Numbered from the stretch's first letter, positions 9,587-20,598 are shown. The stretch is DNA of 64,000 bases from Actinomycetes bacterium (GCA_021852345.1 JAJZNL010000055.1:29070-93069), one strand, 5' to 3'. Notes: a model not told the origin generated them from the letters alone. Numbers and translations are program-made.

Positions 9587-10552
9587 TCAAAAATCGATTT
9601 GTCGTAAAATTTTAAGCGCGAGGCCGTCCAAAATATCGCTTTCTAAAACATGACAACTTTTAATGCCAAACTTTTGCAACGCCACCAGAAGTATTAACGC
9701 CCCGGCAACTATTACTTCAGCCCTTCCCACTTCGAGTCCCGAAAGTTCACGGCGCTTACTAAGTGGCAATTCGGCTAAGTATTGGAGCGTGGCTTCGATT
9801 TGATCCAAGGTCAACTCCTTTAAATGGACACCTTGTTTACTGTACTCCTTTATGCCATTGGCAACCATATACAAACTGATAGCGGTACCAGCTACGGCAT
9901 AAACTCTTTCGATTTGTAAATTTTGATATCTAGAGCAAACTACGGTGAACAAATTTGATACGTATTTAAACGCTTTTTCTAAGTCGTTTCTATCGACAGG
10001 ATCAGACTTAAAAAATCTTTCGGTAAGTCTTACACATCCAATATCAATTGAGCCACCGAGTGCATTTGAAACAAATTTGCCGGCTTCATAATTCGAATTT
10101 AAATAGTCAAGTTGAAGACCACTTATAACCTCTGTCGAACCGCCACCGATATCTATAACAACAACTCGCTCTTTAGTTGATTCCAAACCCGACATTGCCC
10201 CTTTAAAACTTAATACCGCTTCTTTGTATCCGCTTAATAGCATCGGCGTTACTCCAAATAGATCGCGAACGGCTTTAATAAAGTATTGAGAATTCTTTGA
10301 ATCCCTAACCGCAGATGTTGCAATCAGCCCCCATTCAGTCACGTTAAAACTTTGACCTATTTCAAAATAATCCTTTAAAACCTTTAAGGTTCGGCTGACC
10401 GCATCTTCATCTAAATTTTTTTCTTTGTCTACGTTTTGGCCCAATCTGGTGACCCTGGAATCTCTATAAATTTGATTTTTGTCATCGTCAATTATAAGCA
10501 GTCGAGTCGAGTTTGTTCCACAATCGATGGCCCCGATAATCTTATTCATCAT
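9587..10552 (-). CDS. ppx: Exopolyphosphatase, Ppx/GppA family
   Basis: AIDCGTNSTRLLI and VIDIGGGSTEV ASKHA phosphate-binding motifs. 4 nt overlap with the DUF501 gene. Confidence 0.9.
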   Translation of the reverse strand: MMNKIIGAIDCGTNSTRLLIIDDDKNQIYRDSRVTRLGQNVDKEKNLDEDAVSRTLKVLKDYFEIGQSFNVTEWGLIATSAVRDSKNSQYFIKAVRDLFGVTPMLLSGYKEAVLSFKGAMSGLESTKERVVVIDIGGGSTEVISGLQLDYLNSNYEAGKFVSNALGGSIDIGCVRLTERFFKSDPVDRNDLEKAFKYVSNLFTVVCSRYQNLQIERVYAVAGTAISLYMVANGIKEYSKQGVHLKELTLDQIEATLQYLAELPLSKRRELSGLEVGRAEVIVAGALILLVALQKFGIKSCHVLESDILDGLALKILRQIDF

Positions 10553-11046
10553 AGTTCGCTTTCGTATTCATCGATATTTAACTTACACGTACCAGCCACC
10601 CAACTCCCCACAGCATCCTGTCTTGTTGCCAGAAAATTGGCTAAATGGGCATGTAGACATTTTAGTCCCCGCCCAGTTCCCCCAACACCGCCTTGAGGCA
10701 TTAATCCCGCATAATTTTTGGGAAGAAGTTCATGTCTCATTGCCGAATATCTTTTATGAATTTCATCGATTTCGGTTTCGTTAAACAGCCGTTCCACAAA
10801 CTTCAAACCAAATTCAGCTTCAATTCTGGACACTAACTTTGACTCTTTTTTACCCAACAACCAAAAAAGTGTCGGCATCGGAACCCCGCTATTTAAAATA
10901 GGGTAGTTTGCAATTACAACAATACCTTTTGTGGTTCTATTTCTAACTGTGACTTTAAAGGGTCCCGAAGGCGGGCGTTTCAAAAGTTTTTCTACTTCCA
11001 AAAAATCGGATTCGTCAAAACCGAAATCATCGATTGACTTAATCAA
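10549..11046 (-). CDS. DUF501 domain protein
   Basis: 165 aa with the GTGRGLKCLHAHLA motif. Sits directly upstream of ppx, as in actinobacterial eno-ftsB-DUF501-ppx loci. TTG start. Confidence 0.75.
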   Translation of the reverse strand: MIKSIDDFGFDESDFLEVEKLLKRPPSGPFKVTVRNRTTKGIVVIANYPILNSGVPMPTLFWLLGKKESKLVSRIEAEFGLKFVERLFNETEIDEIHKRYSAMRHELLPKNYAGLMPQGGVGGTGRGLKCLHAHLANFLATRQDAVGSWVAGTCKLNIDEYESEL

Positions 11047-11048
11047 TT

Positions 11049-18845: not shown

Positions 18846-19315
18846 TTCCAAAATTCAAGTCTGGATAAAAGCCTTGAGAAGAAGTTTTGGTTGGCATTAG
18901 TTTTCGAAGAACTTGCAACAGATCCGTTGGGACCCAAATGCGTCGGAATAGGCGGAACGGGATTTTGATTGGCATTATTGGGCAAAACCACATAGGGCTG
19001 TTCCCCTTGCTTAACCAAACCATATCTCTGTCTGGCGAGTTTTTCAATGTAAGACGGTGTATTTAGCTGCTGGATTTGCTTATTCAACTGTTGGTTGGAA
19101 GCCTGCAACTGCAATTGGGTGGTCTGAAGCGCTGCCAATGACCTGTTTTCATTGTAGAGCCTGTTGAAAGGAAATTCAAGCCCAAAGAATACGACAATGC
19201 ATAAAAATATAAACAAAAAGACCGGTCGCCTTTTGGTGCGTAGCTTTTTTGTTCGCTTCTTCTTGTGCGATATTCTCTTGCTATTTGCGTTTGTTTTTGT
19301 CGATGCGGTAGTCAT
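18842..19315 (-). CDS. ftsB: Septum formation initiator, FtsB/DivIC family
   Basis: Basic N-terminus, a single TM (VFLFIFLCIVVFFGL), a coiled-coil Q/L-rich segment, then IEKLARQRYGLVKQGE. Directly downstream of eno. Confidence 0.8.
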   Translation of the reverse strand: MTTASTKTNANSKRISHKKKRTKKLRTKRRPVFLFIFLCIVVFFGLEFPFNRLYNENRSLAALQTTQLQLQASNQQLNKQIQQLNTPSYIEKLARQRYGLVKQGEQPYVVLPNNANQNPVPPIPTHLGPNGSVASSSKTNANQNFFSRLLSRLEFWK

Positions 19316-19323
19316 GGATAAAC

Positions 19324-20598
19324 TTAAACTTTAAAGGCACTCCTGCCTTTATATACTGCCGAACTGTCCAACTCTTCTTCTATTCGAAGCAGTTGGTTAT
19401 ATTTGGCAATTCGCTCAGAACGAGCGGGAGCACCCGTTTTAATTTGGCCCGTGTTAAAAGCGACTGCCAAATCAGCAATCGTAGAATCTTCGGTCTCCCC
19501 GGATCTATGCGACATTACAGTAGTATATCCGGCGAGTTTGGCCATTTCAATGGCGGACATTGTTTCAGAAAGCGAGCCTATCTGGTTGACCTTTATAAGA
19601 ATTGAATTCGCCACTCCCCTTTCAATTCCCTCTTCCAAACGCGACGTGTTGGTAACGAAGACATCGTCGCCAACCAATTGAACTTTTGAACCTAACAGAT
19701 CCGTAAGTTGCTTCCACCCGTCCCAGTCTTCTTCGTGCATGCCATCTTCAATGGATATAATAGGATAATTTTCAACCAGTTTGACCCAATATTCGCACAT
19801 GTCGGACGAACTCAAAGGCTTATCTCTGTCACTTAAATGATATGATCCTTCGGCATAAAATTCTGAGGCAGCTGGATCTAAAGCTATTGAGATATCTTCG
19901 CCCGGTTTTAATCCGACGGCTTCAATTCCTTTTACTAATAGCTCTACGGCTTTTTCATTTGAATCCAGATCTGGAGCGAATCCGCCTTCATCGCCAACAC
20001 CAGTAGACAAGCCGAGAGACTTAATAATAGATTTTAAACTGTGGTAGGTTTCCGCTCCCCACATGAGCGCCTCGCTGAAACTTGCCGCGCCCACGGGAGC
20101 TATCATAAATTCCTGCAAATCAACCTTATTATCGGCGTGAACTCCCCCATTTAATACATTCATCAAAGGTACTGGCAGAACTCTTGCAACAACGCCCCCT
20201 ATGTACCTAAAAAGCGGCAATTCCGCTTCAAATGCAGAGGCCTTAGCCGTAGCCAATGAAACTCCAAGTATGGAATTGGCACCAAGACGGGACTTATTCA
20301 CAGTTCCGTCAAGGCTGATCATAGCGTCATCGAGACCAATTTGGTCAAACGAATCTCGCCCGACAATGTGGTTTTTAATTTCAGTATTTACGTTGTTGAC
20401 TGCCGTCTTTACGCCTTTACCCAAATAACGTTTTTGCGAATCTCGTAATTCGACGGCTTCGTGACTGCCAGTGGAAGCGCCAGAGGGAACCGCAGCACGA
20501 CCCATTATCCCCGTTTCGAGTATTACGTCGACTTCAACGGTTGGATTTCCCCTCGAATCTAAAATTTCTCTTGCTTTTATATCAACGATTGCCGACAT
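19324..20598 (-). CDS. eno: Enolase
   Basis: Full-length 424 aa with [23 protein letters not shown] and RGNPTVEV motifs. Confidence 0.97.

Follow-up and report, generated by a model that had tools for sequence, protein, structure and literature searches.

A molybdenum hydroxylase cassette between divIC and DUF501 is a lineage-typical part of the eno-ppx block in Acidimicrobiales

The window analysed here is a stretch of 64,000 nucleotides (nt) from an Actinomycetes bacterium (GCA_021852345.1, JAJZNL010000055.1:29070-93069). It contains a block of ten open reading frames (ORFs), all on the minus strand, in the order eno, divIC/ftsB, L, S, M, XdhC, MocA-like, CoxG-like, DUF501 and ppx. The four actinobacterial genes of this block (eno, divIC, DUF501 and ppx) are co-directional and keep their ancestral order. 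In the window, divIC is not the immediate neighbour of DUF501; the interval between them is 7,797 nt and holds six genes for a molybdenum enzyme and its accessory proteins. An earlier reading of the window made from the DNA alone (the sequence-only reading) had given the same gene content, coordinates and order from eno to ppx, with about 7.8 kb between ftsB and DUF501, and the ORFs and their Pfam and NCBIfam domains confirm this description.

Domains were checked with Pfam and NCBIfam, and every Pfam domain is above its gathering score. The first gene of the block is eno (19324-20598), which encodes an enolase with Enolase_N and Enolase_C domains and a TIGR01060 score of 674 bits (cut-off 300). 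The septum-formation initiator gene, divIC/ftsB-like, follows at 18842-19315 (Pfam DivIC, 66 bits). The large molybdopterin-binding subunit, L, is encoded at 16530-18845 (Ald_Xan_dh_C, MoCoBD_1 and MoCoBD_2). The small subunit, S, at 16045-16533 (Fer2_2 and Fer2), has two [2Fe-2S] clusters and the motifs CGACTV, CGFCTSG and CRCTGY. The medium, FAD-binding subunit, M, at 15214-16026, matches FAD_binding_5 with 142 bits and CO_deh_flav_C weakly, and contains the motif AGGQSL. Next is an XdhC-family molybdenum-cofactor insertion chaperone in a single fused form (13940-15169; XdhC_CoxI and XdhC_C). It is separated by a non-coding, AT-rich spacer of 342 nt with 36.5% GC and no ORF (13598-13939) from a MocA/MobA-like nucleotidyltransferase gene (13013-13597). 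The product of the latter scores 84 bits against NTP_transf_3 and 97 bits against the MocA/YgfJ model TIGR03310, and by sequence is probably a molybdopterin cytidylyltransferase. The CoxG-like gene (11049-13022; Pfam COXG, 58 bits) encodes a tail-anchored protein of 657 amino acids (aa). The block closes with DUF501 of the Rv1025 family (10549-11046; Pfam DUF501, 60 bits), in which the KCLHAH motif is conserved, and with the Ppx/GppA exopolyphosphatase gene ppx (9587-10552; Pfam Ppx-GppA, 182 bits).

Several of these genes overlap. At the divIC/L junction (...ttt tgg aaATGAca), the ATG of L (18845-18843) overlaps the TGA of divIC (18844-18842). The L and S genes overlap by 4 nt and the MocA and CoxG genes by 10 nt. 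The TAA of CoxG is followed by 2 nt and then by the TTG start of DUF501, and DUF501 overlaps ppx as ATGA. The ATGA at divIC/L, the 2-nt gap and the DUF501/ppx overlap had all been reported before and are read directly from the sequence.

Related loci were gathered by a DUF501-anchored scan with one genome per species, which gave 80 loci, 72 of them assessable for the placement of MocA and CoxG. The related loci compared with the window are labelled with L-numbers (L002-L089), and the ten window proteins were run by tblastn against all survey loci. Nearly all loci are from Acidimicrobiales, Acidimicrobiaceae, Ilumatobacteraceae or Microthrix. The best match to the window DUF501 is that of L007 (Acidimicrobiales, 93% identical), and among the 80 loci all others are at most 51% identical. 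The window enolase is encoded identically, with the same gene calls, on contig DAHZJI010000039.1 (GCA_027411075.1). The host of the window is a low-GC (~40%) member of the Acidimicrobiales. Several metagenome-assembled genome records (L008, L025, L033, L037, L041 and L078, as well as L020 and L085) are labelled Bifidobacterium (breve or sp.) or Acidobacteria. Their loci group with Ilumatobacteraceae or other Acidimicrobiales by gene order and in the DUF501+Ppx tree, and their labels are probably wrong.

The eno-divIC-DUF501-ppx block is documented for Mycobacterium tuberculosis and for 61 of 63 Actinobacteria in a preprint that names divIC 'the invariant immediate neighbour' of DUF501 and whose survey is without Acidimicrobiia (bioRxiv 10.64898/2026.08.31.746906). 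The plain block is also present in 20 of the assessable Acidimicrobiales loci, in agreement with the earlier expectation that the four genes are contiguous in many Actinomycetota. In 50 of the 72 assessable loci, the genes immediately before DUF501-ppx are MocA and/or CoxG. The count rises to 51 with L007, whose long CoxG fell outside the distance filter.

The ten-gene order is the same in L002 (L 70% identical to that of the window), L003 (66%) and L004/L005 (50%), with the L003 locus ending at the contig end within CoxG. The 4-nt divIC/L overlap is kept in L002, L003 and L004, and the two genes are 60-75 nt apart in GC-rich relatives. L004 also has the classic actinobacterial neighbours prs-rplY-pth-mfd-mazG upstream of eno. 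The cluster is also found inside a complete eno-to-ppx block in the distant GC-rich members L050, L079 and L089, and the order in L050 and L089 is eno-divIC-L-S-M-...-MocA-CoxG-DUF501-ppx. The divergence of L parallels that of eno and ppx: eno, L and ppx are 84, 70 and 64% identical to the window in L002 and 65, 50 and 37% identical in L004. The whole arrangement is conserved in a vertical-looking manner to 45-50% L identity, and roughly 70% of the species sampled from the order have it. A literature search for this arrangement in Acidimicrobiia found no specific description.

In the neighbour-joining (NJ) tree of DUF501+Ppx, the cluster-bearing and plain states are clade-structured. Every member of one large clade carries the cluster, a second clade is mostly plain and a third is mixed. 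The window lineage has the cluster, and its sister lineages are plain. The simplest reading is that the cluster was gained long ago, with later losses and remodelling.

The composition of the cassette varies among the relatives. A fuller cassette has the order L-S-M-CoxD(AAA)-CoxE(VWA)-XdhC (two ORFs)-MocA-CoxG. It is located at the eno locus in L089 and adjoins rpsB-tsf-pyrH-frr, an unrelated context, in L087; CoxD and CoxE are also present in the L012 cassette by Pfam. In L088, L-S-M lies beside sugar-type oxidoreductase and transporter genes. The window cluster contains no AAA (CoxD), VWA (CoxE) or CoxF-type genes, and its cassette is a reduced, streamlined one, without CoxD/CoxE and with a single fused XdhC. 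In an NJ tree, the L-S-M clade comes out as monophyletic with 100% bootstrap support. It is separate from the S-L-M-type paralogues, only 34-36% identical, that L029 and L080 carry at the same locus. The order L-S-M had been pointed out as departing from both the form I and the usual form II order. It was read correctly, but because it occurs at the eno locus and elsewhere (L087, L088 and L089), it is the regular order of the L clade and is not peculiar to the window.

Across the order, the linkage that is kept most stably is MocA-CoxG-DUF501-ppx. In seven loci (L024 at 1-9300, L008, L042, L047, L060, L061 and L078), only MocA-CoxG are still linked to DUF501-ppx. The 9 kb upstream of MocA-CoxG in L024 contain no molybdenum-related genes; the genes there encode an amidase, an MFS transporter, a CoA-transferase, DUF222 and NlpC/P60. 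In the GC-rich L029 (1596-5226) and L080 (15-3091), the other L paralogue, which also has AYRGAGR, lies upstream of XdhC-MocA-CoxG-DUF501, and the order in L029 is S-L-M. This suggests that structural genes were replaced beside retained accessory genes. In the Microthrix-like loci L012, L013, L034 and L054 (~150-4400; GC 46-47%), divIC is followed by an ABC-2 transporter (ATPase and two permeases) in the position of L. These loci retain S, M, CoxD, CoxE, XdhC, MocA and CoxG, with no L gene within 10 kb. The L089 assembly gives enolase and DivIC as a single 582-aa product (8162-9910) and breaks mfd into three ORFs; such calls more likely stem from frameshift errors than from genuine fusions. 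A GT4 glycosyltransferase gene with a weak C-terminal PilZ match lies downstream of ppx in the window (7886-9406, minus strand) and is also kept in the 70% and 50% relatives (L002, 21131 onward; L004, 19939-21552).

The spacer between XdhC and MocA, a feature absent from the sequence-only reading, contains no small ORFs in six frames and no NfeD or Band_7 remnants. In L002, NfeD and Band_7 (stomatin-like) genes occupy the corresponding position (15065-16521). When aligned with L007, L002 and L003, the spacer is similar only to that of the near-identical L007, and no conserved element appears. A promoter-like TTAACT-16-TATAAT (13651-13624) precedes the start of MocA by 27 nt, and just after XdhC there is a weak hairpin (13909-13895). 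The spacer is a probable internal promoter region, and it is a site of gene gain in relatives. The block is probably transcribed as two units, eno-divIC-L-S-M-XdhC and MocA-CoxG-DUF501-ppx. Translational coupling would be expected at the divIC/L, L/S, MocA/CoxG and DUF501/ppx overlaps. Across the whole window, Rfam at gathering thresholds gives no match, and so no Moco riboswitch or other known RNA.

Subunit L consists of an a/b-hammerhead and two molybdenum cofactor-binding domains. Together with the two [2Fe-2S] motifs of S and the FAD_binding_5 domain of M, this places the enzyme in the xanthine dehydrogenase (XDH)/CO dehydrogenase (CODH) family. The solved structure nearest L is 8uem, the CoxL of M. 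smegmatis (381 bits), followed by 1ffu (H. pseudoflava CutL, 364 bits), 4zoh (S. tokodaii, 333 bits), 1t3q (quinoline 2-oxidoreductase, 320 bits) and 7dqx (6-hydroxypseudooxynicotine dehydrogenase, 314 bits). The loop AYRGAGRPEA of L aligns with AYACSFR (8uem) or AYRCSFR of solved form I CoxL. In this alignment, VVAYRGAGRPEA of the window stands opposite GVAYACSFRITEA and GVAYRCSFRVTEA of the CO dehydrogenases, with Gly for Cys and one residue fewer. The window loop matches SYRGAGRPEG of 4zoh. The catalytic Glu near the C-terminus of L is kept, with GAKGIGESG aligned to the same motif of 8uem, 1ffu and 4zoh.

Because the copper-binding Cys is replaced by Gly, CO oxidation is not to be assumed. 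The sequence-only reading had urged the same caution from a loop of AYRGAGR rather than AYxCSFR, and the alignment with solved CoxL upholds it. The AYRGAGR motif is that of form II, but other hydroxylases have it too (PMC13240472), and by itself it is therefore insufficient for form II. The earlier label 'form II' keeps the support of the motif. It is not matched by gene order, as the usual S-L-M order is absent and the S-L-M paralogues at the same locus are distant from the window clade.

Among the NCBIfam models, L, S and M score best with the alpha, beta and gamma subunits of archaeal glyceraldehyde dehydrogenase (NF041018-20; glyceraldDH_alpha for L). All three scores are below the cut-offs, at 555 vs 790 bits for L, 202 vs 350 for S and 200 vs 290 for M. 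For other members of the L clade, the glyceraldehyde dehydrogenase models are also the best, with 620-664 bits, again below cut-off. The CODH models for L are below cut-off as well (TIGR02416, 418 vs 991 bits; NF040766, 490 vs 950 bits). By its sequence, the enzyme is a molybdenum hydroxylase of the CODH/XDH family that belongs to an uncharacterised clade and is not a Mo-Cu CO dehydrogenase. The most likely substrate would be an aldehyde or a heterocycle, with an aldehyde as the best, though weak, lead.

The window CoxG is made up of an SRPBCC domain (residues 1-150), an acidic linker of ~470 aa, a juxtamembrane motif and a C-terminal transmembrane (TM) helix. Over its first 150 residues, the protein matches M. 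smegmatis CoxG, solved as crystal structure 8UDS, with E=1e-33, and its hydrophobic tail has a 19-residue Kyte-Doolittle mean of 2.19. In M. smegmatis, CoxG has a menaquinone-binding SRPBCC domain, a flexible linker and a C-terminal membrane helix (Kropp et al. 2025, PMC12202499). Nearly all of the ~55 readable relatives, L050 excepted, share the CoxG end ...RKIxxPxxxPxNLL...LKRxxP followed by a hydrophobic helix and basic residues. The usual length of CoxG in Acidimicrobiales relatives is 190-290 aa, with a linker of ~50-80 residues. The proteins of the window, L002 (17462-19498) and L007 (1002-2975) are 657-678 aa long, and the extra length is the ~470-residue linker, 22% of which is Asp+Glu. 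In a comparison with L002, the N-domain (89% identity) is better conserved than L (70%), and the tail is conserved too. The linker is poorly conserved save for short islands, such as SLKERLEDIRRDIDEAR, DKLSKLA and NGEVIPIFK. This linker is the only really unusual element of the window cassette. Elsewhere in the window, a complete nuoA-N operon (NADH:quinone oxidoreductase; ~32800-48340, minus strand), preceded by hemB and an aminotransferase gene, indicates a quinone-based respiratory chain.

The sequence-only reading had taken the six genes for an insertion into the block. Synteny had been set beforehand as the test of this, and close relatives commonly share the arrangement, so that the insertion reading is not upheld. 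The genes do interrupt an ancestral block, as the 20 plain loci indicate, but this is not special to the genome of the window. A recent horizontally acquired island, inserted in this genome or its immediate ancestors, would fit the contiguity of the block in most Actinobacteria and in those 20 loci, as well as the homologous L-S-M cassettes in other genomic contexts. It is effectively refuted by the shared placement in relatives to 45-50% L identity and in 51 of the 72 assessable loci, and by the conserved junction sequence. The cluster and its flanks have the same GC content (0.40-0.44), with no GC island, and no integrase, tRNA or repeats occur at the cluster borders. A tRNA scan found none, so there is no tRNA-linked integration site. 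With the same arrangement in relatives and a host-like GC content, the placement is ancient and lineage-typical in the Acidimicrobiales and is not a fresh insertion; its conservation in related genomes makes it more than chance. Adjacency without any consequence for expression, in which the molybdenum and housekeeping genes are transcribed and translated independently, is distinctly unlikely. The 342-nt spacer with a promoter-like site inside the block and the 60-75 nt between divIC and L in GC-rich relatives are consistent with it. However, with divIC/L and DUF501/ppx overlapping by 4 nt and only 2 nt between CoxG and DUF501, a terminator plus a promoter would not fit in, and co-transcription at both cluster edges is therefore likely. 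The divIC/L overlap is also conserved in L002-L004, and MocA-CoxG-DUF501-ppx is tightly packed in >50 species. The earlier picture of a cluster wired into a housekeeping operon probably holds for both edges, where starts and stops overlap; a single operon is probably too strong, given the AT-rich gap and its promoter-like site.

Two alternatives concern the enzyme itself. That it is a working aerobic CO dehydrogenase ('form II CODH') yielding energy from CO is very unlikely, even though the nearest solved structures are the CoxL proteins of M. smegmatis and H. pseudoflava, CoxG resembles 8UDS, CoxD and CoxE are present in the fuller cassettes of relatives, and many homologues have the JGI annotation CO dehydrogenase large subunit. 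Compared with form I, the AYRGAGR loop has one residue fewer and is without the Cu-holding Cys, the window is without CoxD, CoxE and CoxF-type genes, and the TIGR02416 score of L is far from its cut-off. In the literature, CO oxidation is validated for form I only and form II activity is treated as unresolved (PMC13240472). The other alternative is a glyceraldehyde or related aldehyde oxidoreductase tied to enolase, which would feed glycerate, 2-phosphoglycerate and then phosphoenolpyruvate, much like the non-phosphorylative Entner-Doudoroff branch of archaea. The alpha, beta and gamma models are the best for all three subunits and are also the best for other clade members, the loop matches that of S. 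tokodaii 4zoh (SYRGAGRPE), the cluster adjoins eno, and L088 has sugar-type oxidoreductase and transporter genes beside L-S-M. Every score is nevertheless below its equivalog cut-off, glycerate kinase is absent from the cluster, and the ancestral block accounts for the position next to eno. The cassette is also found away from eno, and many genomes keep only MocA-CoxG with DUF501, with eno no longer nearby. This role is unlikely.

The best explanation overall, which is considered probable, is that the Acidimicrobiales form of the eno-divIC-DUF501-ppx block has long carried an L-S-M hydroxylase cassette. Several points weigh against it. The scenario of an ancient gain plus losses rests on an NJ tree of two short proteins. 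L sequences from other contexts (L087 and L088) nest among those of the eno locus, and therefore some transfer or relocation of the cassette has occurred. The two-unit model is inferred; the scan of 9000-21500 gives 32 promoter-like sites vs 29.4 expected and 12 terminator-like sites vs 10.7, no better than shuffled sequence. The MocA-like protein, at 97 bits, is under the MocA equivalog cut-off of 186. Quinone binding by CoxG and a molybdopterin cytosine dinucleotide cofactor are suggested by homology only. No NCBIfam equivalog reaches its cut-off for the window proteins or for other clade members, so that no substrate can be named in this way. The enzyme adds a new, uncharacterised member to a known family, its placement is ordinary for the lineage, and no major concept is changed.

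Under the preferred explanation of a long-carried hydroxylase cassette, the six proteins could act as follows. MocA would make the cytosine-dinucleotide form of the molybdenum cofactor, and XdhC would insert it into L. L would then oxidise a small organic substrate, not CO, most likely an aldehyde or a heterocycle. Electrons would pass from the molybdenum of L to the two [2Fe-2S] clusters of S and on to the FAD of M. From FAD, they would be transferred to menaquinone on the SRPBCC domain of CoxG and so to the membrane, where CoxG would be tethered by its C-terminal helix through the long acidic linker.

A stronger version of this explanation holds that the embedding is functional and not neutral. 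In most Acidimicrobiales, DUF501 and its partner ppx would be expressed from the MocA-CoxG unit and the molybdenum enzyme would be translationally coupled to divIC, and in the lineage of the window the ~470-residue tether would make CoxG a long-reach quinone shuttle. This is improbable. If true, it would mean that a respiratory auxiliary dehydrogenase is co-regulated with growth, division and polyphosphate turnover, and that the long-tether CoxG is a new variant of the quinone-extraction mechanism. In either case, the giant acidic linker is a natural length variant that could be used for testing the quinone-shuttle model. Thousands of Acidimicrobiales 'CO dehydrogenase' annotations belong to the L-S-M clade without the Cu-binding cysteine and are not to be counted as CO oxidisers.

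DUF501 is essential in M. tuberculosis and is a candidate metalloenzyme. The adjacency of divIC and DUF501 is broken in most of the sampled Acidimicrobiales, a large and old exception to divIC as the invariant DUF501 neighbour. While this adjacency is broken, DUF501 and ppx stay together, which suggests that DUF501 has its functional partner in Ppx and not in DivIC. In L004 (16099-17505; GCA_021777355.1, JAJYDO010000008.1), DUF501 and Ppx are fused in one 468-aa ORF; this is a single genome, and a sequencing error is possible. The fusion is a hint that DUF501 works with the polyphosphatase.

The window cassette resembles several known systems. It shares with the form II (BMS) CoxL-like enzymes the AYRGAGR loop, the L, S and M subunits and cox-like accessory genes. 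The order in the window clade is L-S-M vs S-L-M, where the comparison is with the S-L-M paralogues of related loci at 34-36% identity. The form I Mo-Cu CO dehydrogenases (8UEM, 1FFU and O. carboxidovorans 1N5W) are the nearest solved structures, with 313-381 bits, and share the three-subunit architecture, the catalytic Glu and a CoxG partner. They have AYxCSFR with the Cu-binding Cys, the order M-S-L, and coxD, coxE and coxF, whereas the window has AYRGAGR, L-S-M and none of these three genes. The archaeal glyceraldehyde dehydrogenase models (NF041018-20) are the best curated models for the three subunits, and the YRGAGRPE loop is shared with S. tokodaii 4ZOH; the window differs in scores well below the equivalog cut-offs, in its bacterial source and in its accessory genes. 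The window CoxG has the SRPBCC domain, linker and C-terminal TM helix of M. smegmatis CoxG (8UDS, PMC12202499), but its linker is ~470 residues long with 22% Asp+Glu, and its partner enzyme is not a form I CODH. Compared with the actinobacterial eno-divIC-DUF501(Rv1025)-ppx2 operon (bioRxiv 10.64898/2026.08.31.746906), the four genes have the same order and strand, and DUF501 and ppx are still adjacent and overlapping. The window has 7.8 kb of molybdenum enzyme genes between divIC and DUF501, and the upstream neighbour of DUF501 is CoxG, as in most of the sampled Acidimicrobiales.

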